DNA of 64,000 nucleotides from an uncultured Gemmatimonadales bacterium (GTDB taxonomy: Bacteria; Gemmatimonadota; Gemmatimonadetes; Gemmatimonadales; GWC2-71-9): the NCBI GenBank assembly GCA_963796635.1, contig CAWCMH010000001.1:11709-75708 (forward strand), read 5' to 3'. The notes below the pieces were generated by a model, which worked only from the letters and a program-made list of their open reading frames with translations, was not told the origin of the DNA and did no database searches. A program made the position numbers and the translations under genes. Below, in pieces: positions 6,373-27,341 of this stretch. The first letter of the stretch is position 1. Every line of letters begins with the position of its first letter.

Positions 6373-6952
6373 TTGCGTTGCCTGGCATTGAACGCCTCCT
6401 TCGAACCACTCACCATGGTCCCCACGCGACGTGCGCTCCGGCTCGTCATCGAGGGCAAGGCGGAGATCGTCGAGGCAGACGGCGGCGAACCGGTTCGAAG
6501 TATGCGGATGGAGATGCCGCGCCCGGCGATCATCCGCCTGGTGCGCTTCGTCCACGTCCCCCGCCGCTTCCGCCGCCAGGTCACCAACACCTTCCTCTTT
6601 GCCCGCGACTCCTACACCTGCCAGTACTGCGCGCGGGTGCAGGGCCAGCTCCGGCTGCGCGAATGCCTCACGCGCGATCACGTGATTCCGCAGTCGCGCG
6701 GCGGCAGCAACGACTGGACCAACGTCGTCACGGCGTGCTCCAGCTGCAACACCCGCAAGGGGAACCGGATGCCCGATGACATCGGGATGCATCCGCTGCG
6801 CGTCGCCGATGGAACCGCACTTCGTGCACCTGTCGTGGGCGATCCGCCGGCTCACCGCGACGCAGCTCAAGTACATCCGGATCTTCTACGGCGAAAGCGC
6901 GCTGGCGGCGATTCGTCCGCACCCGGCGGCCATCACGGCCCTTTCACGGTAA
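6373..6952 (+). pseudogene. HNH endonuclease family protein, one frame change (about 6797)
   Basis: CQYC ... TRDHVIPQSRGG ... NVVTACSSCNTRKG (HNH/zinc ribbon). After MHPLR the conserved tail PMEPHFVHLSWAIRRLT..LKYIRIFYGE is in the +1 frame and ends at TAA 6950..6952. Confidence 0.8.
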
Positions 6953-7527
6953 ACGTCGCGGTCCGCGCTTCGGGCAGGTCTTCGTGGTTGCCGTTCCCCA
7001 TGATCAGCCGCCGCACCAGTTGCGATGCCGCGCTGGAGCCATCGTCGTTGTTGCGCGCATCGCCGGGCGGGTCCGCCGTGATGCTCAACCCCACGGTGTA
7101 GTACCAGCGCCCGGGGGACAGCGTGGCCGGCGTCACCAGTCGGGCCTCGCGACCCACCCACATCGCCAGCGAGTCGGCCGTGTGGAAGGTCTCCGTCGTG
7201 GTCGCATTGCTCGGTGCGCTCCTCGAAGGTGTACACGTCGATGACCGGGACTTCCTGGATGATATCGTCCCACTCGACCGGCGTGAGCGGCCGGTCGATC
7301 AACCGCGACTGCCAGAGCACCACAGTCCAGTGCAGGTGCAGCGGATACGCGCTCGACAACGCGTCGCGCCAGCGCGGGTCGGTGAGCAGGTCGCTGACAT
7401 GCACCACGAGATTGGGAGGGGCGTCGGGCCGCAGCTCCAGGCGCACGCCAATGCGCGCGCGCGCCTGCGCCGGCGCCGCCGTCACGGCGCCAACCAGGAG
7501 AGCGAGTGCAGTGAGCCAGCGCCCCAT
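6933..7527 (-). pseudogene. secreted hypothetical protein, tentatively DUF4390-like; one frame change (about 7205); last gene of the HK/EBP/OMP operon
   Basis: Signal peptide MGRWLTALALLVGAVTAAPAQA. LLTDPRWRDALSSAYPLHLHWTVVLWQSR resembles the DUF4390 core from memory. The C-terminal half continues in the frame of ORF 6933..7163. The start is 5 nt after the stop of 7533..9242. Confidence 0.4.
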
Positions 7528-7532
7528 CGTGC

Positions 7533-9242
7533 CTAGAACCGCGCGTTGAAGAGCAGCAACGCCTGCATGCCGACCGGATCGACCAGCGACTTGGCCAGGT
7601 AGACGCCGACCCACGGCAGGGCGATCCCGGCGCCGACGTCCGATCGCCACTCGTTGATCGCCTCGATCCGGTTGGTCGGCACTCGCCCGGCGCTGTCGCC
7701 CGCCAGCCACGCGCTACCGGCATCGGCGAGCAGCACCAGGTCGGGTTTGCGGATGCCCACGGTGTAGGGTCCGACGCGCGTCGTCAGGTCGATCGGCAAC
7801 GTGTGGTGGTATTCCAGTTGCACCGCGAGTTCCCGGTCGCAGAGCGCCGGCTGGCCGGGATCGGGTTTGCGTCGACGATCGCAGTTGATCGCTCGAAAGT
7901 CGTAGCCCGACAAGGGATCGGCGCCGCCGATCGCGCGGCGCCGCTGGATGGTCAGTGGATCCCCACCGAGATAGCCGCCGCCGGATATCCGACCGTTGAT
8001 GCGCTGTTCCGGATCGATTCGCAGATAGGCCCGGAGGTCGAAGTCCCCTTCGGTCTCGCCGTAGCCGGTCGATGGCAGCGGGTCGCGAATCGCGGTGGGC
8101 AACGACACCGGCTGGAGATCGTTGCTCGCCACGTGGCGCACGGCCACTCGGGTGTACCACTGCAGCACAGGGTGCCGCCGGTCGTCGCGGCCGTCATAGG
8201 TGAACTGCAACGACGCGATGCGGTAGCGGCCGTCGTCGATCAGCGGATTGGCCCGCCAGGTCTGATAGGCGCGGAACAGCGAAAACGCGTTGACCGCCTG
8301 CACCGTGTTCTGCTGACTGATTTCATACGATCCCGACAGCGTGATTTCGGGCCACGGCGTGACATTCGCAAACAGCGAGCCGCCGCGCCGGAGGTACCAG
8401 TCGTGATAATCGCGCCGGAGCAGGATGGCGCTCAGCCCCGACTCGACGGACGAGAACGGCCGATCCTGGGTCGCCGTGATGGTCGATCCGCCTTCGACGC
8501 CCACCGAATACGGCACCGGCCCGCTGTGCGACAACTCCGACTGGACGTGCCAGCCGACCGCCGCGCGACTGTGATTGGGGTCGCTGGCGCTGCGCAGGAC
8601 CAGGTATGCCTGCGAGCGCAGCGTGTCCGCGGGCATCGCCTGCCAGATGGCGTTGGCGCCGACCTGGATCGGCAGCCCCTCGACGCGATTGTACTGTCCC
8701 AGACCCAGGTGCGGCGTCAGGCGCACCTCACCGACATCGATCCCGATTGCCGAGGCGCGCGCGCCGAGTGAACGCGTGGGCGGACGCAGCACGACGGCAC
8801 CATCGCTGCGCGTCATCAGGGCGACCACCGTGTCGCAGGCGCGACGGACGCCGCCGATGCGGCCGCCCGGATCGACGGTGAGCCGGCCGCCCAGCACGGT
8901 GACGTCCCCGGCGACGCGGCCGGTCGCCGTGACGCGGAGGTCGCCATCGAGCACCACGACGCTGCCGCCCACGCTGCCGTCGATCCGCAACGAACCTTGA
9001 TACACGCCATAGGCGCCGCGGGTGGAATCCGGCGCCGGGATGCTGACGCTGCCACGGAAGACGCGCACCGTCGCCGGTGCATTGAATCGCGCCAGCGCCG
9101 CGGCGATGAGAGAATCGTCGGTACAACCGGGCGCCGGCGCCGCGCCCGGCGGCCCCGTATTGATGGTCCGCACCTGGGCCGCCAGCGGGCCCGCCATGCC
9201 GACCACGGTCGCCGCCAGCAGCATGGCGCTTCGGCTCGTCAT
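7533..9242 (-). CDS. outer-membrane protein: signal peptide, bactofilin-like beta-helical segment, Omp85/surface-antigen-like C-terminal beta-barrel (no obvious POTRA)
   Basis: [72 protein letters not shown] is bactofilin-type G.V.G periodicity. The C-terminus has [31 protein letters not shown] and a terminal LLLFNARF. The start overlaps the EBP stop (ATGA). Confidence 0.55.
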
Positions 9243-10618
9243 TCCCCGCCTCCTCCGCGAATCCCCAGCCGGCGCATGCGCCGGTAGAGGTTGCCACGAT
9301 CGGTCTTGAGCAGCCGTGCCGCTTCGGCAATGTTGCCGCCGGCGTTCGCCATCGCGCCGGTGATCAGTTCGCGTTCCGTGTCATCCAGCCGCTCCGTGAG
9401 CCCGCGGCCGTTGTCGGTAAACTCGGCCGTCGTGACGGATACCGGTGCGACGACCCCGAGTCCTCCGGCCCGCAGCACCCGCGGCACCAGATCGCCGGTG
9501 ACTTCGTCGCCGCCGATGATGGTCAGGCGTTCGACGATATTGGCGAGCTCGCGCACGTTGCCGGGCCACGTGTGGCGCCGGAGTGCCGTCAGCGCCTCAT
9601 CGGTGAAATGCGGCGGGTGCCGCGGGCGCAAACGCGCCGCAAGGTGCTGCACCAGCTCGGGGATGTCGTCGAGGCGGTCTCGCAACGGCGGCACCTCGAT
9701 CGGGAAGACGTTGAGCCGGAAGTACAGATCCTCGCGGAAGGTGCCGTTGTGGACCGCGTCCTCGAGCCGTCGGTTCGTGGCGGCCAGTGCCCGGATGTTG
9801 ACGTGGACGGTGCGCTCCGCGCCGATCCGCTGGATGTCGCCGCGTTCGAGCACCCGCAGCAGCTTGGCTTGTGCCTCGAGCTGCAGGTCGCCGATTTCGT
9901 CGAGAAAGAGGGTGCCGCCATCGGCGAGTTCGAAGCGTCCGATCCGCCGATCGGTCGCACCGGTGAATGCACCGCGTTCGTGCCCGAACATCTCGCTTTC
10001 CACCAGGTCGCGCGGAATCGCGGCGCAGTTGACCGACACGAACGGTCCGCGCGCGCGCGGTGAGTAGCGATGGATGGCATTCGCGACCAGCTCCTTGCCG
10101 GTCCCCGATTCGCCGAGAATGAGGACGCGGGCGTCGGTCGGTGCCACCTGGCTGATGAGCTGGCGCACGTGCTCGATTTCGGGGCTGGTGCCCACCAGCG
10201 TCGGCTGCGGACCGAGCGCCTGGCGCAGCGAGCGGTTTTCGGCCTGGGTGCGCACCAGCGTTTCGGCCGAGCGCACGGCGACCAGCAGGGACTCCGGCGC
10301 CAGCGGCTTTTCGAGAAACTGGAAGGCGCCCATCTGCACCGCGCGCACGGCGTCGGCCAGCTGCGCCTTGCCGCTCATCATGATGACGGGGATGTCGTGA
10401 TCGGCCGTGCGAATCTTCTCCAGCGTCGCGAGCCCGTCGGGGCCCGGTGGCATCATCAGGTCGAGCAGGATGATGTCGGGGCGCACGTCGGGAAGCGCCA
10501 GCAACCCGGCGTTGCCGTTGGGCGCTTCGGCGACGTCGAAGTCCTCGGACTTGAGCAGGGCCCCCACCATGCGGCGGATGTTGGCTTCGTCGTCGACGAT
10601 CAACACGCGCGTGCTCAT
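9239..10618 (-). CDS. sigma-54-dependent response regulator (NtrC/NtrX family enhancer-binding protein)
   Basis: Receiver domain ([11 protein letters not shown] ... [10 protein letters not shown]). AAA+ domain with GESGTGKE and GAFTGA. Fis-type [28 protein letters not shown]. True start is ATG 10618, overlapping the kinase stop. The 572-aa ORF 9239..10957 is an upstream extension into the kinase gene. Confidence 0.9.
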
Positions 10619-11793
10619 GCCGGAAACTCGACCACGAACGTCGCGCCGCGCGGTGCGTCGGCCAGGCCGATCGTGCCGCCATGCTGCTCGATGGTCTGCC
10701 GCACGATGGCGAGTCCCAGTCCCGTCCCCGCGGGTTTGTCGGTGTAGTAGGGCTGGAAGATCTTGTCGCGGTTGGCGGCGGGAATGCCGGGCCCGCTGTC
10801 GCGGAAGGTGATGCGAATGCAGCCCTCGTCGAGTGCGACCGCGACGTCCAGCGATCCCTCGCCGTGACAGGCTTCGACGGCGTTGCGCACGATGTTGCTG
10901 AACGCGCGTCGCAGCGGATCGTAGTGCCCGACGAGCGTGACATCGGGCCGATCGCATGTGAAGGTGGATTGCATGCCTTCCGGCACCGCGTTGCGCAGCA
11001 GGTCCTCGAGCAATTCACACAGGTCCACCGCGGCCGCCACGCCTTCCGGAAGCCGGCCGAGCTCGGCGAAGTCGCGCGCCATCGCTTCGAGTCGTGCCGA
11101 TTCCGTGCCGATCACGTCGAGCGCGTCACGCCACTCGGGGGGCGCGTTGCGCGAGAGCTGTCGCACGGCGAGGCGAATCGGTGTCAACGGATTCTTCATT
11201 TCGTGCGCGACGCGACGGGCCACCTCGCCAAAGGCGCGCAGCCGCTCGGCCTCGAGCTCGGCGGCGCGGGCCTGCTCCAGTCCGGCTTGCAGCGTGTAGA
11301 GCGATTGCTGCAACGTCACCAGCTCCGGCGTGGCCCGGCGCGACTGCACCTGCGGCAGCGGGTCGTGCCGGAGAATGCGTCGCGTCCAGTCGACGATCTC
11401 GTTGAGCGGCGCGGCGTACTGCCGCGACAGCATCGCTCCCGCGCCGACCACGAGCAGCACGAAGAAACCGACGACCAGGATCAACGCTACGGCTGCACGC
11501 TCGCCCCATTGCCGTTCGGCGCCGGGTGTCTGCGTCGCGGCGATCATCAGGGAGCGCACACTGTCGTCGTGCTGCTGCAGAGCGGTCCGCTGCGCCGGAG
11601 TGAGCGCAGCCTGACTGAGCTGGGCAAAGGCGCGTGATTCGGTCCGCCCGACCGGGAAGATGTCGGTGTCGGGATTGAGGCGCGGCTGGTGCTTCACCGC
11701 CCAGACGCCGGCCACCGCCATCACCGCCAGCGGAAAGGCGCTGACCGTGAGGAGGGCGATGAACAGGCGGGCTCGAAAGGAGAGGCGGGACAC
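10615..11793 (-). CDS. membrane sensor histidine kinase (2 TM, HAMP, HisKA, HATPase; NtrY/NtrB-like)
   Basis: TM segments [24 protein letters not shown] and [24 protein letters not shown]-box [13 protein letters not shown]-box IVRNAVEA, G-boxes DSGPGI and GTGLGLAIV. Confidence 0.85.
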
Positions 11794-18567: not shown

Positions 18568-18710
18568 CGCTGCTCAGAGCACCGCCGGGGAAACCCGGCT
18601 TCGCAGAGCCAGGGAGCTACCGCACCGAACGGTGCCATGCCCGCCCAGCCGCCAGCGACCGTTCCCGCGAGGGAATCACATTCGGGCCGGCTTGCCGGCT
18701 GAGGTGCGCT
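18568..18710 (+). promoter_or_regulatory. conserved structured 5' leader, copy 1 (candidate cis-regulatory RNA) upstream of small lipoprotein gene
   Basis: About 90% identical over the first 93 nt to 21353..21445. Hairpins: GCCGGG-GAAA-CCCGGC (18584-18599), GCACCGAACGGTGC (18622-18635), TTCCC-GCGA-GGGAA (18662-18675), GCCGG-CUUG-CCGGC just before the GAGG Shine-Dalgarno. Confidence 0.45.
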
Positions 18711-19118
18711 GTGCAGCTCGTACGAGTCGTTCCGGCGTTGATGATCGCAGCCTTGGCTGCGTGCAGCAGCGAGACTGCGACCGGTCCGTCGACCACTACA
18801 CCCGCCGGCCCGACGGCCGGGTGGTTGACCGTGCAGCTTACCACCCCCAACAGCAATGATGGCGCGGTGCAGTTCTCGATCGCCGGTCCCGCCATCGACA
18901 GCGTCGCGATCGTCGGCTACGACGGTTTTGCCGCGCGGACCAGCAACGTGGCCAATCTGGTCGTCGACGGGCAGATCACCAGCGGCGACGTGGCGCGCAT
19001 TCTCGTTCCGGACATCTCGCTGGCTGGTGATTACCAGGCCAGCGTGTCGGCTGCCGCGGCGCGCGACAGTTACGAGTTGCAGTCGACGCAAGGCTACCGC
19101 GCCATCATCGTCAGATAG
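18711..19118 (+). CDS. small hypothetical lipoprotein, paralog A
   Basis: GTG start 6 nt after GAGG. VQLVRVVPALMIAALAACSS lipobox. About 65% identical to 21494..21904 (WLTV.L.TP..NDGAVQ...GP..DSVA.VGYDGFAART...VVDG.I.SGD.ARI.VPD...DY.A.VSAAA.RDSY.LQS). Confidence 0.6.
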   Translation: MQLVRVVPALMIAALAACSSETATGPSTTTPAGPTAGWLTVQLTTPNSNDGAVQFSIAGPAIDSVAIVGYDGFAARTSNVANLVVDGQITSGDVARILVPDISLAGDYQASVSAAAARDSYELQSTQGYRAIIVR

Positions 19119-19133
19119 CTGGCGGCGCAACGA

Positions 19134-20130
19134 TCAAGCCACGGTGTGGTGCCGCAGCCGCCATGGCCACCACACGGCACCGGCCAGGAATCCGCAGCCC
19201 CACGCCACGTGGATGATCAGGAAGACCAGCGGCAGCAGCGGCAGGTAGGTCCACTTGCTGCGCGCGGCCGTCACAATGCTGATCCCGATATTCGCGCCGG
19301 CATACACGAACAGGTGCAGCGCGCCGAGCACGCCAAACCAGTGTGTCAACGGCCACGCCGCGACAATCGACAGCACGAACAACGGAGGTATGACCTGACG
19401 CGCGCGCAGCGAGTGCGCGTGCTCCATCAGCGTGCGCACCTTCCAGAAGCCGTAGCGGGTGTACTGGCGCAGCAGCGATGTGAGCGAGCCGCGCACGAAA
19501 TAGGTCGAGCGAATCGTGGGCGACAGATAGACGCGATGGCCTGCTCGGCGCAGGCGCACGTTCATTTCATAATCTTCGTTGACGGCCCAGTCTTCGCGCA
19601 TGCCGCCGATGGCGCGCAGCGTCTCGGTGCGCCAGCAGCCGAGGTAGACGGTGTCGGTGAATTCGGGCGCGGTGGCGTAGCGGTACTTGGCGTCGCCGAC
19701 GCCAAAGCGCGACGACAGCGCCGCGGCGATCGCACCGCTCATCCAGCCGCGACCCGTCGCGTGCTGGATCCCGCCGACGTTGCCGGCGCCGGTTTCGTCG
19801 AGCAGGCGAACGGATTCGCTGATGTAGTCGGCGGGATAGGTGCTGTGCGCGTCGGCACGGAGCAGGTATTCGCCGCGGGCGCGGCCGATGCGCGTGATTG
19901 AACGCGGCGGACTGGATGCGCCGGGGATTGTCGACCAGGATCACCTGCGGATGCCGCTCCGACAGCTGCCGCACCAGCGCGGCCGACTCGTCGGTACTCT
20001 GTCCGTCGTACACCAGCAACTCCGACTCGTCGGCAAGCGGGTCGGCCAGCAGCGACTCGAGACACGCCGTGATGAAGGCCGCTTCGTTGCGGATCGGGAT
20101 GATGACGGTGATGCGGGGATCGGAAGCCAT
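19134..20130 (-). pseudogene. family 2 glycosyltransferase, ExoA-like, one frame change (about 19893)
   Basis: ITVIIPIRNEAAFI...YDGQSTDES...VILVDNPRRIQSAAFN. After the shift: GEYLLRADAHSTYPADYI...GGIQ... then the frame of ORF 19134..19742, with C-terminal TM helices. Confidence 0.8.
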
Positions 20131-20184
20131 GACGCGGCAAAGTTATCCGGACCGGCAGCGTTGAGCGAAGAGAAGGGACAAAAC

Positions 20185-20213
20185 AAAAGGCCACCGCATC
20201 GCGGTGGCCTTTT
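20185..20213. terminator. bidirectional rho-independent terminator hairpin
   Basis: AAAAGGCCACCGC-ATC-GCGGTGGCCTTTT, perfect 13-bp arms flanked by A/T runs, 27 nt downstream of the PEP-CTERM gene stop. Confidence 0.7.
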
Positions 20214-20239
20214 GTGTCCGAGCGAAATTGCCGAGCGGT

Positions 20240-21043
20240 TCAGCTCTTCTTGATGCGCCGACGAAGCGAGGCCCCGCCCAGACCGACCAGACCCATCGCC
20301 ATCAGCGACATGGTCATCGGCTCGGGGGTGAAGCCCTGCGGGCCGCCGCCGTTGTTGGCGTAGATGCCGATCAGCAGGTCCTGGTAGTCGCCATCGGAAT
20401 AGCCGGTGGTTGACTTGCTTCCGGAGGCCATTGCCGGTATAGAGGTCCTCGAAGCCGACGATGAACTGACCGCCACCGGCGCCGAGCGTAGCGCCGCCGA
20501 GTCCGAACAGCGCGAACTGGCTGCCGGCGTTGGAGAACACCTCAGTGCCGTCGGTCAGCACCGATGTCAGGCGAACGGATCGAATGCACTGTTCCGGCCA
20601 GAGGACAGTCGCCCAACGTAGTGGTGTTGCACGTCGTTCCGATCCGTGCTGATGCCCCAGTCGATTCCGCGCCTGGACGTCGAGCCGGCTGCGACGATAC
20701 CGATGCAGTTGAAGTGTACGTGCCCGCGCTGAACGTGAAGTCAGGCGACGCATCGTATCCGCTCGGCAATGCGTTGGCGCCGGTGAATCGCCGTTCGCGT
20801 CGGAGAGCCGTATACGGCAGCCAACCGGTCGGGTGCTGGTTGTTGCAGGTCGTAGCCTGCGCTGCCAGCCGTCCCGTTGAGGACGTAACCCGATGTTGCA
20901 GTTCGTGCCGTCCCACGACAGGTTATCCAAGAAGCGGTCTGGCTGTTATCGGCAGGTGGCGCGCCGTTGACCCACTGGGCCTGCGCGGAAACTACGGTGC
21001 CGCCGACAAGGGCGGCGACGATCAAGGCTGACAAACGCTTCAT
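20240..21043 (-). pseudogene. PEP-CTERM sorting-domain protein (exosortase substrate) with DUF4114-like FED...DGDY.D region; at least 5 frame changes
   Basis: Signal peptide MKRLSALIVAALVGGTVVSAQA (ORF 20741..21043). Internal pieces LDNLSWDGTNCNIG, FTGANALPSGYDASPDFTFSAGTYTS, LTDGTEVFSNAGSQFALFGLGGATLGAGGGQFIVGFEDLYTGNG sit in other frames. C-terminus GYSDGDYQDLLIGIYANNGGGPQGFTPEPMTMSLMAMGLVGLGGASLRRRIKKS = PEP motif + TM + basic tail (ORF 20240..20476). Confidence 0.75.
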
Positions 21044-21080: not shown

Positions 21081-21096
21081 AGCAAGCCGCGCGCCA
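21081..21096 (-). promoter_or_regulatory. sigma-54 (-24/-12) promoter candidate TGGCGC-GCGGC-TTGCT for the PEP-CTERM gene
   Basis: Reverse complement of AGCAAGCCGCGCGCCA. Exact TGGC..N7..TTGC with GG-N10-GC spacing. About 40 nt upstream of ATG 21043, intergenic, correct strand. Confidence 0.55.
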
Positions 21097-21127
21097 GTCC
21101 GGCGGCGGTGGACATGGTGTCGCTATC

Positions 21128-21151: not shown

Positions 21152-21352
21152 AAATCCATCACCGATCGCGCTGGCCGCGCCGTAGCGGCCGCGCAACAAC
21201 AGTTGTCGTTGGGCGGCCATAGGGTTCGGCGTCGACCGCGAACCGACCTCCTGGCGGCCCACCGCGCCGTGACGAGCGGGGGTCTTGATTTGCCCGCTGC
21301 CCGATTACATTAGCCGCACCGCGATCGTTGTTCTCGCATCACAATTGAAGCA

Positions 21353-21493
21353 CGCTGCTCAGAGCACTGTTGGGGAAACCTGACTTCGCAGAGCCAGGGG
21401 GCTACCGCACCGTACGGTGCCATGCCTGCCCAGCCGCCAGCGACTACGCCCGCAAGGGTCACTGTCACGTCGGTGCGCCGGCGGAGGTGTGCT
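21353..21493 (+). promoter_or_regulatory. conserved structured 5' leader, copy 2
   Basis: Homolog of 18568..18710. Hairpins GUUGGG-GAAA-CCUGAC (21369-21384), GCACCGUACGGUGC (21407-21420), GCCC-GCAA-GGGU (21448-21459). GGAGG Shine-Dalgarno 6 nt before GTG 21494. Confidence 0.45.
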
Positions 21494-21904
21494 GTGCAGC
21501 TTGTGCGTTTCACCCCCTTGCTGTTGCTCGCGGCCGCGGCGGCATGCGGCAGCGAACCCGGCACGAATGCGTCGGCCAGCAGTACGTCGATCACGCCCAC
21601 CGCGGGGTGGTTGACGGTGCGGCTCATCACGCCACACACCAATGACGGCGCGGTCCAGCTGGCGGTGACCGGCCCGACGGTCGACAGCGTGGCGATGGTT
21701 GGCTACGACGGATTCGCTGCGCGAACGGACGATGCGGTTGACATCGTGGTCGACGGCGCGATCGTCAGCGGCGACATTGCCCGCATTCATGTGCCCGACC
21801 TTTCGGTCGCCAGTGACTATCGGGCCACCGTGTCTGCTGCCGCGATGCGCGACAGTTATCAACTCCAATCGATTGATGAATACCGCGCGGTCGTCGAACC
21901 GTGA
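21494..21904 (+). CDS. small hypothetical lipoprotein, paralog B
   Basis: VQLVRFTPLLLLAAAAACGS lipobox. Paralog of 18711..19118. Lies directly upstream of the S8 protease gene. Confidence 0.6.
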   Translation: MQLVRFTPLLLLAAAAACGSEPGTNASASSTSITPTAGWLTVRLITPHTNDGAVQLAVTGPTVDSVAMVGYDGFAARTDDAVDIVVDGAIVSGDIARIHVPDLSVASDYRATVSAAAMRDSYQLQSIDEYRAVVEP

Positions 21905-22327: not shown

Positions 22328-25300
22328 ATGATCCGGAGTCGGTGGGGCATTGGCCCTGTCGTGGCGCTGCTGCTGTTGCCTTCGATCGCCAGCGCCCAGC
22401 AAGACCTGACGTCGTTGCACCGAGCCGTGGCTGCGGCGGGCGGGCGCGTGATCGTCACGCTCAAGAGCGGTGGGCATGGCGCCATGTTGCGCGTGCCGGG
22501 CTCGCCACCCGTGACCGCCGGACAGATGGCTTCGATCGAGACGCGGCTCACCCGGGTGCATCACATGCGGGTGCACAGTCGCGCCGCATTCATCGGCGCG
22601 CTGATGTCGGTGGTCGATGACTCCGACCTGGATCGCCTGGTGGCGGATTCCAACGTTGCGACCGTCGAGCCCGACGTCGCTGCCCCGCTGACATCGGTCG
22701 AATCACATGACGTTGCCGCACCGGTCACATCGGCCGCGACGCATGGCGTCGTGGTACCGGCGCGATTCGCGGCGGACGCGATTCCGTGGGGTGTCACCGA
22801 CGTCGGTGCGCCGCAGGCGTGGGCTGCGGGGATCACCGGCGCGGGCGTCAAGGTCGGCATCATGGATTCCGGCATCGATATCACGCATCCCGATCTGCAC
22901 GTCGTCGGTGGCCAGAGTTTTCAGACGGTCAACAACAATCCGTCGAACCTCAACGATGACGTCGCCAGCTGCGATGGGCACGGTACCCATGTCGCCGGCA
23001 TCGTGGCGGCGCTGCAGAACGGGGTCGGCGTGGTTGGTGTGGCGCCGGGTGCGTCGTTGTATGCGCTCAAGGTGTTCGAGGACGACGGCAGCGGGTGTGT
23101 CGCGTGGCTCAGCTCGCAGATCAACGCGCTGCAGTGGGCGGTGACCAACCATCTCGATGTCGTCAGCATCAGCATCGGCAACTCAGCAGTCGGCGCACTT
23201 ACGACTACGCCGTGGCGTCGGCGATCGCCGCGGGCGTGAACGTCGTGGCTGCCTCCGGCAACAACAACGGTGGAGCGATCGTGACTCCCGCCGCGTCGCC
23301 CGGTGCGATCGCGGTGGCCGCGCTCAATTCCGACAACTCCGTCGCCAGCTACTCCAATGCCGGCCCGCAGATGTGGGTCGCCGCACCGGGCACCAGCGTG
23401 GAGAGCACGCTGCCGGGCGGCACCTACGGGTACAAGTCGGGCACCTCGATGGCGACGCCGCACGTCACCGGCGTGGTGGCGCTGCTCAAGCAGGCCCACC
23501 CGACCTGGACTCCGGCGCAGATCCGCGCGCAGCTGGAGTCGAGCGCGGTCGACCTGTCGACGCCGGGCTTCGACAACGCCACCGGCTGGGGATTGGTGCA
23601 GGCCCCTGGTGGCACGCCGACGCCGTTGACACTCGCCGTGAGCCCGCAGAGCCGGAAAGCGACCGTGCAGCAAGGGAGCAGCGCGCCGAGCGATCAGGCA
23701 AGCGTCACGCTGAGCGGGACGAACGCGTCGACGACGGTGTGGACGGCCAGCAAGAAGAAGAGCTGGATCACGTTGACGACCGCGAGCGGCACCGGGAGTG
23801 GCACGGTGGCGTGGAGCCGGAACAGCAGCGCGCTTGCGGCCGGGACCTACGTCGACACGATCACGGTGTCGGCCACCGGAGCCACCGGATCGCCCGCCGT
23901 GGTCTACGACTCGCTGGTCGTGACACCGGTCGTGCCGGTGACGCTCGCGGTAGCGCCCGGCGCGCGCAGCGTGTCGGTGCAGCAGGGTGGCGCGGCAGCA
24001 GGATCGTCGGCGACCGTGACGTTGACCGGGACGAACGCGTCGACCACGGCATGGACCGCGACCAAGAAGAAGAGCTGGACCACGCTGACGACCAGCAGTG
24101 GCACCGGCAGCGGCACGGTGGCGTGGACGCGCAGTACGGTGCCGCTCAGCGTGGGCACGTACGTCGATACCATCACCGTCTCGGCGACCGGCGCCATCGG
24201 GTCGCCGACCGTGGTCTATGACACGATTCATGTGACCGCGGCTCCGGTGCCGGTGACGATTGCCGTGAGTCCGGCGGCGCGCAGTGCGACGATCCAGGCG
24301 GGGAGCAGCGCCCCGGCGACGAGTGTCGCGGTGACGCTGAGTGGCGACAATGCCGCGAGCACGTCGTGGTCGACGACGCACAAGGCGTCGTGGGTGACGC
24401 TCACGACGAGCAGCGGGACCGGCAGCGGCACGCTGGCCTGGAACCGCAATACCACCGCGCTGGGCGTGGGGACGTATGTCGACACATTACGGTGAGCGCC
24501 ACCGGCGCGGTGAACTCGCCGGTCAAGGTCTACGACACGCTGCATGTGACGGCGGCGCCGGTGCCGGTGACCATCGCCGTGAGTCCGGCCGCGCGCAGTG
24601 CGACGATCCAGGCGGGGAGCAGCGCGCCCAGCACGAGTGTGGCGGTGACGCTGAGTGGCGACAACGCCGCGAGCACGACGTGGTCGACGACGCACAAGGC
24701 GTCGTGGGTGACGCTCACGACGAGCAGCGGGACCGGCAGCGGCACGCTGGCCTGGAACCGCAATACCACCGCGCTGGGCGTGGGGACGTATGTCGACACA
24801 TTCACCGTGAGCGCCACCGGCGCGGTGAACTCGCCAGTCAAGGTGTACGACACGCTGCATGTCACTGCTGCCCCGGTACCTGTTACCATCGCCGTGAGCC
24901 CCGCTGCGCGGAGTGCGACGATCCAGGCGGGGAGCAGCGCCCCGGCGACGAGTGTCGCGGTGACGCTGAGTGGCGACAACGCCGCGAGCACGACATGGTC
25001 GACAACGCACAAGGCGTCGTGGGTGACCCTCACGACGAGCAGCGGGACCGGGAGCGGTACGCTGGCGTGGAATCGGAATACCACCGCGCTCGCCGCCGGC
25101 ACGTATGTTGACACGTTCACGGTGAGTGCGGCGGGTGCTGTCAATTCGCCGGTCACGGTCTTTGACACATTGCATGTGACGGCGGCGCCGGTGCCGGTCA
25201 CCATCGCCGTGAGCCCAGGGGCGCGCAGCGCCACCATTCAGGCGGGCAGCAGCGCGCCAAGCACCAGCGTCTCGGTGTCGATGGCGGGGACCAATGCGTG

Positions 25301-27341
25301 GAGCACCACCTGGTCGACGACCCACAAGGCCTCGTGGGTGGTCCTGACGTCAGGCACGGGCATGGGCAACGGGACGCTGGCATGGAGCCGAAGCACGACC
25401 GGGCTCGCGGCGGGTACCTACGTCGACACGTTGACCGTCAGCGCCAGTGAAGCGGTGAACTCGCCGGTCGTCGTGTTTGACACGTTGCACGTGACGGCGG
25501 CACCGGTGCCCGTCACGATCGCCGTGAGCCCTGCCGCGCGCAGTGTCACAATTCAGGCAGGAACCACCGCGCCCAACACCAGCGTCGCCGTGACGCTGAG
25601 CGGCGACAATGCTGCGACCACGGCATGGTCGACCACGCACAAGGCGTCGTGGGTGAGCCTCACGACGAGCAGCGGCACCGGCAGTGGGACGCTGGCGTGG
25701 AGCCGCAACGCGAGCGCGCTCAGCGTCGGCACCTACGTCGACACGCTGACCGTGAGTTCCGCGGGCGCGGTGAATTCGCCGATCGAGGTGTTCGACACGG
25801 TGCACGTGACGGCAGCGCCGGTGCCGGTGACGATCGCGGTGAGCCCCGCCGCGCGCAGCACCACGATTCAGGTCGGCAGCAGTGCGCCCAACACGAGCGT
25901 TGCCGTGACATTGAGCGGAACGAACGCCGGTACGACCACCTGGTCGACGACGCACAAGGCCGCCTGGGTGAGCATCACGACAGGCACCGGTACCGGCAGC
26001 GGTACGCTCGCCTGGACGAGGGAGGCGGCGAGTCTCAGCATCGGGACGTACGTCGATACGTTGACGGTGAGCGCCAGTGGTGCCGTGAATTCTCCAGTGC
26101 TGGTGTTCGACACCCTGCACGTCACGTCCATCCCGGTTCCGATCACGATTGCGGTCACGCCGATCAGTCACGGCGCCGCCGTGGTGCAGGGGAATCCCGC
26201 CCCGACTGGCAGCGCCAGCGTGTCGCTCGCCGGGACCAACGCGATCGCTGTCCCATGGACCGCGACGCACCATGCAGCCTGGCTGTCGCTGATGGCGGCA
26301 TCCGGGACCGGCAGCGGCAACGTCACGTGGCAGCGTAGTACGGCGGGCCTGCCCGTCGGTGTGCATGTCGATACCATCGAAGTGACTGCCGTCGGTGCGG
26401 TCGGGTCGCCTGCGTCGGTGGTCGACACGTTGCAGATCCTCGCGGCACCGCTGCCCCTGACCGTTGGCTTTACGCCGGGGACCCGGAGTGCGACGGTGAT
26501 GCAGGGCATGTCGGCCGCGGACCAGGCCGCCGTCACGTTCGCGGGCGACGGCGCCGATGCCGCGTCGTGGACGGCCACCAGCACCGCCACGTGGCTGTCG
26601 CTCAACAATGCTTCCGGCAATGGGTCGCAGACGCTGTCGTGGTCGTATCATGCGGCGCTGCTGCTGCCGGGATGGCACGTGGCGACCATCACGGTGACGA
26701 GTGGCGATGCCCAGGCAGTGCTGATCGATTCGCTGAACGTGACTGCGCTGGTGCGCTCGATCGCGCTCTTGCCGGCCGGGCGCCGGATCCGGTCGGTGCA
26801 CTTTGCCAACTCGGGCGCCCATCTAAGCTTGATCCCGATCGACTCGGCCCTGGTTCAGGGGACGGACCTCGACAGCACCAGCGATGATACCTGGATCGCG
26901 ACGGTCAGCACCGACCGGCTGCAGATCCAGACCGCCAGCGGCGCGGTCGGATCACACGTGGTCTGGGGCCGGCCACCGCAGGATCTGGCCAATGGCCTGT
27001 ACGTCGACACCGTGACCGTCACACTGGCCAGCGACGCGAGCCTGCAGGCGCAATTCATCGACTCACTGGACGTCGCCACGGTCGCGGCTCCGGAGCCCGG
27101 TGCGGCGGTGACCGACCTGTTCAGCGGGTCGAGCCTGACGGCCGACCAGCGCAGCGCGATGGACGCGCAGGGGAACAGCAACGGCCGCTACGATCTGGGC
27201 GACTTCCTGGCATGGGTGAGTCGCAATCACATCCAGCTGTCACCGGCCGTGGCGATGAAGCTGCGCACGGTCATGTCTACCACGCAGTCACCGCTGCCCC
27301 GGCCGGCGCAAACACTCAACACAACGAAGCCTCCGCAGTAG
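22328..27341 (+). pseudogene. giant secreted S8 (subtilisin-like) serine protease followed by 10-11 tandem BACON/Ig-like repeats and a dockerin/EF-hand-like C-terminal motif; two frame changes (about 23203 and 24487)
   Basis: Signal peptide. Catalytic D (VGIMDSGID), H (CDGHGTHVAG), S (SGTSMATPHVTG). Segments from ORFs 22328..23239, 23095..24495 and 24366..27341 join colinearly. The 24487 shift is a 1-nt loss that makes one repeat unit 314 instead of 315 bp. Confidence 0.85.
23605..27070 (+). repeat. in-frame tandem coding repeat, period 312-315 bp (104-105 aa), 10 clear units plus one degenerate unit
   Basis: Unit boundaries (codon of the H/V in (H/V)VT) at 23917, 24229, 24543, 24858, 25173, 25488, 25803, 26118, 26433, 26736. 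Units starting at 24229, 24543 and 24858 are near-identical at nucleotide level. Confidence 0.9.

Follow-up and report, generated by a model that had tools for sequence, protein, structure and literature searches.

We classified the two leaders that precede a pair of paralogous lipoprotein genes in the analyzed window (the whole stretch of DNA under study, 64,000 nucleotides) as class-I cyclic-dinucleotide riboswitches (GEMM-I) of an A20 subtype that resembles GEMM-Ib, an assignment that we regard as very probable. The original prediction described a duplicated structured leader at positions 18568-18710 and 21353-21493 and proposed it as a novel cis-regulatory RNA. The duplication is real, and both copies (A and B, respectively) are located at these coordinates. 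The novelty was not borne out by the comparison with known RNA families. When the whole 64-kb window was scanned against Rfam 15, two matches in total exceeded the gathering score, both of them to the family RF01051 (c-di-GMP-I / GEMM-I, gathering score of 35 bits), with E-values of 2e-4 and 6e-4 for the entire window. Aptamer A (18568-18657, +) scored 38.4 bits and was aligned to positions 1-87 of the 87 model positions, and aptamer B (21353-21442, +) scored 40.2 bits over the full model. Since both copies match a curated family above its gathering score, the leader is not a novel RNA. The candidate explanation by a novel RNA family was ruled out by the RF01051 matches in the window copies and in their orthologs.

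Structure and conservation of the aptamers

Each aptamer is 90 nt long and is organized around a three-helix junction, with helix P1 formed by CGCUG paired with CAGCG (18568-18572 with 18653-18657 in aptamer A, and 21353-21357 with 21438-21442 in aptamer B, both on the plus strand). One arm of the aptamer carries a GAAA tetraloop, and the other arm includes a CUACC...CAUG receptor-like internal loop, the combination expected of type 1 GEMM RNAs. In aptamer A, the GAAA-capped hairpin occupies positions 18584-18599 (+), and the distal hairpin of the second arm, described previously as a palindrome, occupies positions 18622-18635 (+).

The nine differences that had been counted between the two leaders over their first 93 nt were confirmed exactly, and correspond to 90% identity. 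Four of them (leader nucleotides 18, 19, 29, and 31) fall within the GAAA-capped hairpin, where they preserve pairing by the substitutions C-G to U-A, C-G to U-G, and G-C to G-U, as had been reported. Identity falls to 68% over the last ~50 nt of the leaders and is 70% in the coding DNA of the two lipoprotein genes. For the mature lipoproteins we measured 61% identity (73/119), slightly below the previous estimate of about 65%. The homology between the leaders indeed starts abruptly at CGCTGC, as the 100 nt upstream are only about 52% identical. Its interpretation as a transcription start is not supported, however, as CGCTGC represents the 5' edge of helix P1 and not necessarily a start. The earlier view of these leaders as non-coding, structured, cis-regulatory elements that act at the level of RNA was judged to be right.

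Because the scores of the window copies are modest (3-5 bits over the gathering score), we searched for their relatives in 25 loci retrieved around homologs of the lipoprotein genes (designated below by L numbers). RF01051 matches were found upstream of the lipoprotein orthologs in L001, L003, L006, and L014. The scores of ortholog leaders against RF01051 ranged from 36.6 to 52.7 bits, with the exception of the L002 leader, which scored 32.0 bits, just under the gathering score. L003 and L006 have a second aptamer, located a few kb farther downstream, with scores of up to 52.7 bits. Aptamer L003a had its best score against the c-di-GMP-I-GGC model, with 35.4 bits, which is far under the gathering score of 59 for that model. 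Using the clade model R1, we identified altogether 19 distinct aptamers, including the two in the window (100.4 bits for A and 99 bits for B) and 17 from related Gemmatimonadota contigs that represent the same conserved locus. The R1 scan of the window found no further copies beyond these two. Among roughly 25 homologous lipoprotein genes, about ten have no aptamer upstream.

The 19 aptamers support the GEMM-I fold by covariation in the helices. Standard pairs occupy 88% of the cells in the alignment, as compared with 77% in shuffled alignments and 25-41% in slid controls, and compensatory double changes were observed in 14 out of 27 pairs, a number reached by none of the 500 shuffles. Covariation extends to every pair of the tetraloop stem (six) and of the distal hairpin (four), and one P1 pair is changed from C-G to U-A in L024. 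The 19-aptamer alignment leans towards R1, as it was fitted to that model; an independent MAFFT alignment of 15 sequences was 86.7% paired and contained 11 co-varying pairs. Most members of the group have mismatches in three of the ten basal pairs of the second arm.

We considered the explanation that these leaders constitute a new RNA family that resembles GEMM-I merely by chance. In its favor, the window scores are close to the threshold (38-40 versus 35 bits), the second arm has several non-canonical pairs at its base, and position 48 is G where the family consensus has A. These features are outweighed by full-model matches in more than eight homologs, with scores up to 52.7 bits, by the agreement between the co-varying helices and those that the family model predicts, and by the GNRA tetraloop, A18, A47, and C92, all of which are in register. 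A chance resemblance is hardly credible given this combination of characters, and we retain the assignment to GEMM-I.

The tetraloop is GAAA in 15 out of 19 aptamers, GGAA in three, and GUGA in one. In most of the GAAA members, including both window copies, CUAMM...CAYG replaces the CUAA...UAUG of the family. The receptor-like CUA...CAUG loop is absent from all four non-GAAA aptamers (L009:1054-1138, L011:2734-2818, L013:134-226, and L024:10159-10260). The tetraloop and the receptor-like loop seem to change together, and the tertiary contact between them is a putative one.

The palindrome GCACCG-NN-CGGUGC at 18622-18635 is present as had been claimed. It had also prompted an alternative reading, in which the conserved block would regulate at the level of DNA and GCACC-N4-GGTGC would serve as an NtrC-type enhancer-binding site. 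The genomic context offers some grounds for it, because the DNA 7-9 kb upstream encodes a sigma-54 activator of the NtrC family along with a histidine kinase, and sigma-54-like -24/-12 motifs occur ahead of many homologous leaders. However, the palindrome lies inside the aptamer, downstream of the candidate promoters; the homologs keep its pairing and not its letters, with compensatory changes in four out of four pairs; and the entire block fits an RNA covariance model on a single strand only. As the sequence of the palindrome varies while its pairing is kept, the reading as a DNA-binding site is excluded for practical purposes, and we assign it a very low probability. The NtrC site was accordingly rejected as a candidate, and the palindrome is attributed to the distal hairpin of the second aptamer arm.

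Ligand-reading positions and the probable ligand

Positions 20, 47, and 92 of these aptamers are given in what we take to be the Vc2 numbering, which we mapped onto the model by the Rfam alignments and found to agree with the consensus of the c-di-GMP-I-GGC model. In aptamer A, the A equivalent to Vc2 G20 is at 18578 (+; position 11 of the model in the Rfam alignment), whereas A47 and C92 are at 18605 and 18652 (+), respectively. The corresponding A20, A47, and C92 of aptamer B are at 21363, 21390, and 21437 (+). Model position 11 immediately precedes the conserved GC in the first arm (CAG-A-GCAC) and is A in both copies. In each window copy, A47 is the nucleotide after CGC, and C92 is the C of the closing GCC. 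The Vc2-equivalent nucleotides A18, G19, A20, A47, G48, and C92 are shared by all 19 aptamers. Position 48 (18606 and 21391) is thus G in 19 out of 19 aptamers, where the Rfam consensus has a conserved A.

Among the three canonical GEMM-I ligand contacts (G20, A47, and C92), A47 and C92 are kept in these RNAs, but G20 is not, being replaced by A in all 19 aptamers. The signature of GEMM-Ib, namely A at the G20 equivalent with C92 retained, is found at 18578/18652 and 21363/21437. The A20 therefore marks these RNAs as members of the GEMM-I structural family, but not of its canonical c-di-GMP-specific type. The consensus of the c-di-GMP-I-GGC model has G, G, and C at the three places equated with 20, 47, and 92, and the "GGC" in its name presumably refers to these positions. 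The c-di-GMP-I-GGC (RF03167) and c-di-GMP-I-UAU (RF03168) families belong to the same clan (CL00126) and share the scaffold, but their ligand positions are G-G-C and U-A-U, respectively, in contrast to A-A-C in the studied aptamers.

The alpha base of the ligand is read by the nucleotide at position 20 (G20 or A20; PMC6140456). GEMM-Ib RNAs, the cGAMP riboswitches, have A in place of G20, which corresponds to A14 in Gs1761 (PMC6140456). The Vc2 G20A variant binds cGAMP and c-di-GMP with Kd values of 120 nM and 53 nM, respectively, and both ligands are also bound by the natural RNA Cbe 1-2 (PMC6140456). Since these two RNAs bind both dinucleotides, A20 alone is insufficient for cGAMP selectivity. 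The bispecific Cbe 1-2 of Clostridium beijerinckii and the engineered Vc2 G20A share the single-nucleotide A20 signature with the Gemmatimonadota RNAs; the organisms and gene contexts are unrelated, and the comparison is one of sequence. Given A20, the ligand of both leaders is likely to be 3',3'-cGAMP, or else cGAMP and c-di-GMP together.

The alternative with almost an even chance is that the RNAs belong to the same riboswitch family with ordinary c-di-GMP as the physiological ligand, so that A20 would only tune the affinity and no cGAMP signaling would be involved. [quoted passage not shown] The locus, which encodes glycosyltransferases, PEP-CTERM proteins, and surface lipoproteins, is also of the biofilm/matrix type that is usually controlled by c-di-GMP, and a cGAMP synthase was not found in the ~0.3 Mb inspected. 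In the 64-kb window and about 250 kb of related loci, we detected no GG[DE]EF or guanine-reading motif and no GGDEF, Hypr-GGDEF, or other cyclase gene. On the other hand, A20 is present in 19 out of 19 aptamers although the proteins have diverged to ~47% identity, and this invariance argues for selection for A over tolerance of it. Moreover, in the literature consulted, A20 goes with cGAMP binding, either selective or shared with c-di-GMP.

With the c-di-GMP-I riboswitches (RF01051), whose prototype is Vc2 of Vibrio cholerae, the Gemmatimonadota RNAs share the P1/P2/P3 junction, the GAAA tetraloop with a receptor-like loop, A18, A47, and C92 in register, and the location ahead of surface and matrix genes, within their 5' leaders. 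They differ by A in place of the highly conserved G20, by G in place of A48, by the three basal pairs of the second arm that are mismatched in most members, and by the Gemmatimonadota host (67% GC) with its uncharacterised family of downstream genes. With the Geobacter GEMM-Ib riboswitches (Gs1761, pgcA, and pilM), they have in common the A at the G20 equivalent (A14 of Gs1761), the retained C92, and the occurrence of several copies per locus ahead of lipoprotein, polysaccharide, and surface genes. The ON logic of pilM (PMC9262584) is likewise predicted here. The host phylum is different, there is no link to exoelectrogenesis, and the likeness to GEMM-Ib is one of sequence signature. In addition, pilM acts by transcription termination (PMC9262584), whereas the Gemmatimonadota leaders apparently act on translation by masking of the ribosome binding site.

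Expression platform and transcription

In both leaders, the ribosome binding site of the downstream gene has its complement in the 5' strand of the aptamer. For copy A, the strand GCUGC-U-CAG-A-GCACC at 18569-18583 (+) is matched by the 3' strand of a proposed anti-RBS helix, GGUGC-G-CUG-U-GCAGC at 18703-18717 (+), which overlaps the Shine-Dalgarno sequence GAGGUG (18701-18706) in part and includes the start codon GUG (18711-18713); both strands were delineated by MFE folding, RNAduplex, and RNAalifold. For copy B, the 5' strand at 21354-21368 (+; MFE fold and RNAduplex) is matched by the 3' strand of the proposed helix at 21486-21500 (+; MFE fold, RNAduplex, and RNAalifold), which likewise overlaps the Shine-Dalgarno sequence GGAGGUG (21483-21489) in part and includes the start codon GUG (21494-21496). 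The two copies are thus described by the common forms GCUGC-U-CAG-A-GCAC(C/U) for the 5' strand and GGUG(C/U)-G-CUG-U-GCAGC for the RBS side. RNAduplex predicts an energy of -23.9 kcal/mol for this duplex in copy A (p<0.001) and -20.3 kcal/mol in copy B (p=0.006), with empirical p-values from a comparison with 1000 random windows of 30 nt taken from the same DNA. This long-range anti-RBS helix is predicted in the unconstrained MFE fold of each leader and again in the RNAalifold consensus of five related leaders. Four of the supporting leaders are close relatives, and double compensation in this helix is not visible, as its 5' strand is invariant.

The linker between the aptamer and the gene includes two further hairpins, both present as had been claimed and recovered in the folds. 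The GNRA-capped hairpin UUCCC-GCGA-GGGAA (18662-18675, +) is kept with a different stem in copy B and in L016. The hairpin GGCCGG-CUUG-CCGGCU (18685-18700, +) abuts the Shine-Dalgarno sequence and has two compensatory pairs among relatives. The linker hairpins of copy B (21448-21482, +) are GCCC-GCAA-GGGU (21448-21459) and GUCGG-UGCG-CCGGC (21469-21482). Neither window leader contains a terminator-like hairpin with a U tract.

Independent support comes from L017b, a leader with an unrelated linker that precedes an S8 protease gene and contains the complement CUCUGGAGCAGC to the same aptamer strand over its Shine-Dalgarno sequence (p=0.01). The complementarity between the strand and the ribosome binding site is borderline in L006b (p=0.048) and L019 (p=0.066). 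In L003a, it is the 3' strand of P1, instead of the 5' strand, that pairs with the Shine-Dalgarno sequence (p=0.012). In 8 out of 17 leaders, no aptamer strand is significantly complementary to the ribosome binding site. A uniform expression platform across the homologs was rejected, since the complementarity is significant in some lineages only.

The masking strand comprises four of the five 5' bases of P1 and the junction nucleotides A18-A20, so the bound aptamer and the masked ribosome binding site would be mutually exclusive, which implies ON logic. Provided that the RNA is a riboswitch, the pairing potential of the leaders makes a translational ON switch the reasonably probable mode of action. 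In the proposed mechanism, a 3',3'-cyclic dinucleotide would bind at the three-helix junction, where A20 would read its alpha base, A47 would intercalate, and C92 would form a Watson-Crick pair with G-beta. Without the ligand, the 5' strand of the aptamer would pair with the Shine-Dalgarno sequence and GUG start ~120 nt downstream and block initiation. With the ligand, this strand would be held in P1 and the binding pocket, so that the ribosome binding site would be freed and the lipoprotein translated. P1 is much less stable than the masking helix, which speaks against a purely thermodynamic switch; the ON switch would probably be set kinetically, during transcription.

It is unlikely, in our assessment, that these are genuine riboswitches working as OFF switches, or on transcription or RNA stability (for example, via Rho-dependent termination). 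The platforms do vary among the homologs, 8 out of 17 of which have no direct complementarity between the strand and the ribosome binding site, and both polarities are known for GEMM-I riboswitches, with Cd1 being OFF and pilM being ON (PMC9262584). These observations are countered by the lack of a terminator-like hairpin with a U tract in either window leader, by the ON logic that follows from the consumption of the RBS-pairing strand by P1 and the pocket, and by the independent leader L017b with the same arrangement. We therefore continue to favor the translational ON switch.

With respect to transcription, a sigma-54-type -24/-12 motif, GGGTCTTGATTTGC, was found as a candidate promoter at 21280-21293 (+), 73 nt upstream of aptamer B. 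The motif GG-N8-TTGC is present at fixed offsets, 40-73 nt upstream of P1, in 13 out of 17 leaders, including copy B, and its background rate is 0.35 per kb per strand. Besides the window, it was detected in L001, L003, L006, L009, L011, L013, L017, L019, L021, and L022. No such motif was found for copy A, and a scan for sigma-70-type promoters and terminators was negative in and just upstream of either leader. A similar motif is located ~40 nt upstream of the PEP-CTERM gene, at about 21083-21098 (-).

Upstream in the window are the genes for an NtrC-family sigma-54 response regulator (Response_reg, Sigma54_activat, and HTH_8 domains; 9242-10957, -) and a histidine kinase (10618-11793, -). The longest open reading frames of the two overlap at 10618-10957, so the start of the regulator is probably further downstream. 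Against TIGR02915, the model of the PEP-CTERM-box regulator, this regulator scored 380 bits and did not reach the cutoff of 503. These sequence features suggest that the locus may combine transcription by sigma-54 and an enhancer-binding protein with riboswitch control. The earlier suspicion of NtrC-type control may hold for the locus, though not for the palindrome.

Regulated genes and the conserved locus

The genes directly downstream of the riboswitches encode the lipoproteins A (18711-19118, +; 135 aa, lipobox LAAC) and B (21494-21904, +; 136 aa, a paralog of A). Both genes have a GTG start, and the lipobox cysteine is residue 18 in both proteins. Neither lipoprotein has a Pfam or NCBIfam match. 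In a database of 5.8 billion proteins, the lipoprotein family has 48 members, and it is restricted to Gemmatimonadota as judged by all members with a named source and by six genome contigs that encode a relative. A confident AlphaFold model (pLDDT of 87) predicts a ~100-aa beta-sandwich, which gave weak cohesin-like matches in the PDB (E-values of 0.01-0.1, TM scores of 0.4-0.5).

The gene order around the riboswitch is kept in more than ten contigs. The conserved locus includes (i) a CarboxypepD_reg/beta-barrel outer-membrane protein, an SdrD_B-like protein, and a VanZ-like protein, the last of these encoded on the minus strand; (ii) the first riboswitch with its lipoprotein gene; (iii) an Exo_endo_phos protein (in many contigs) and a family-2 glycosyltransferase on the minus strand; (iv) one or two PEP-CTERM proteins on the minus strand; and (v) the second riboswitch, with a lipoprotein paralog in some cases, and an S8 subtilase/BACON_2 protein of ~1500 aa. 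The Exo_endo_phos gene was not seen in the window or in L016. In L003, L006, L017, and L024, the second riboswitch is located directly ahead of the protease gene, and these pre-protease aptamers are of the A20 type (L003:7714-7811, L006:7679-7774, L017:10008-10104, and L024:10159-10260). The window and its close relative L016 have a duplicated module, composed of the aptamer and the lipoprotein gene, in the pre-protease place. The subtilase (S8)/BACON_2 gene of the window lies downstream of lipoprotein gene B on the same strand, and copy B would probably control this protease as well.

Three genes of the window are each split into several overlapping open reading frames in different frames, namely the protease (22328-27341, +), the glycosyltransferase (19134-20130, -), and the PEP-CTERM gene (20240-21043, -). 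The homologs of all three in L016, L021, and L022 are single genes, with a protease of ~1500 aa. From the sequence, this suggests that the split frames are due to frameshifts, which may derive from assembly errors or mark pseudogenes. Between the convergent glycosyltransferase and PEP-CTERM genes, at 20183-20215, there is a perfect GC-rich hairpin, AAAAGGCCACCGC-AUC-GCGGUGGCCUUUUG, with an A run on one side and a T run on the other, which is probably a bidirectional intrinsic terminator. This hairpin had weak sub-threshold Rfam matches to leader and sRNA models. Elsewhere in the window, an HNH endonuclease gene (HNH_5/HNH domains; 6373-7101, +) is located between an amidohydrolase gene and a large gene without a confident Pfam match (sub-threshold Bactofilin only).

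The riboswitch class itself is already well known, and its recognition in these leaders removes a false lead towards a novel RNA. At the same time, it assigns a second-messenger input to the uncharacterised Gemmatimonadota-only lipoproteins and to the giant S8/BACON protease of a conserved cell-surface locus. The remaining interest is in the invariant A20 of the Gemmatimonadota clade, which bears on the occurrence of cGAMP-type riboswitches beyond the deltaproteobacterial exoelectrogens. We tentatively put forward the possibility that a Gemmatimonadota-wide GEMM-Ib clade, characterized by A20 and G48, senses cGAMP or integrates cGAMP and c-di-GMP, and that together with sigma-54/NtrC-type transcription it turns on the surface lipoproteins and the S8/BACON protease of the PEP-CTERM/glycosyltransferase locus. 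If true, regulatory cGAMP signaling, so far associated with Geobacter-type exoelectrogens, would extend to a different soil phylum with a different physiology.
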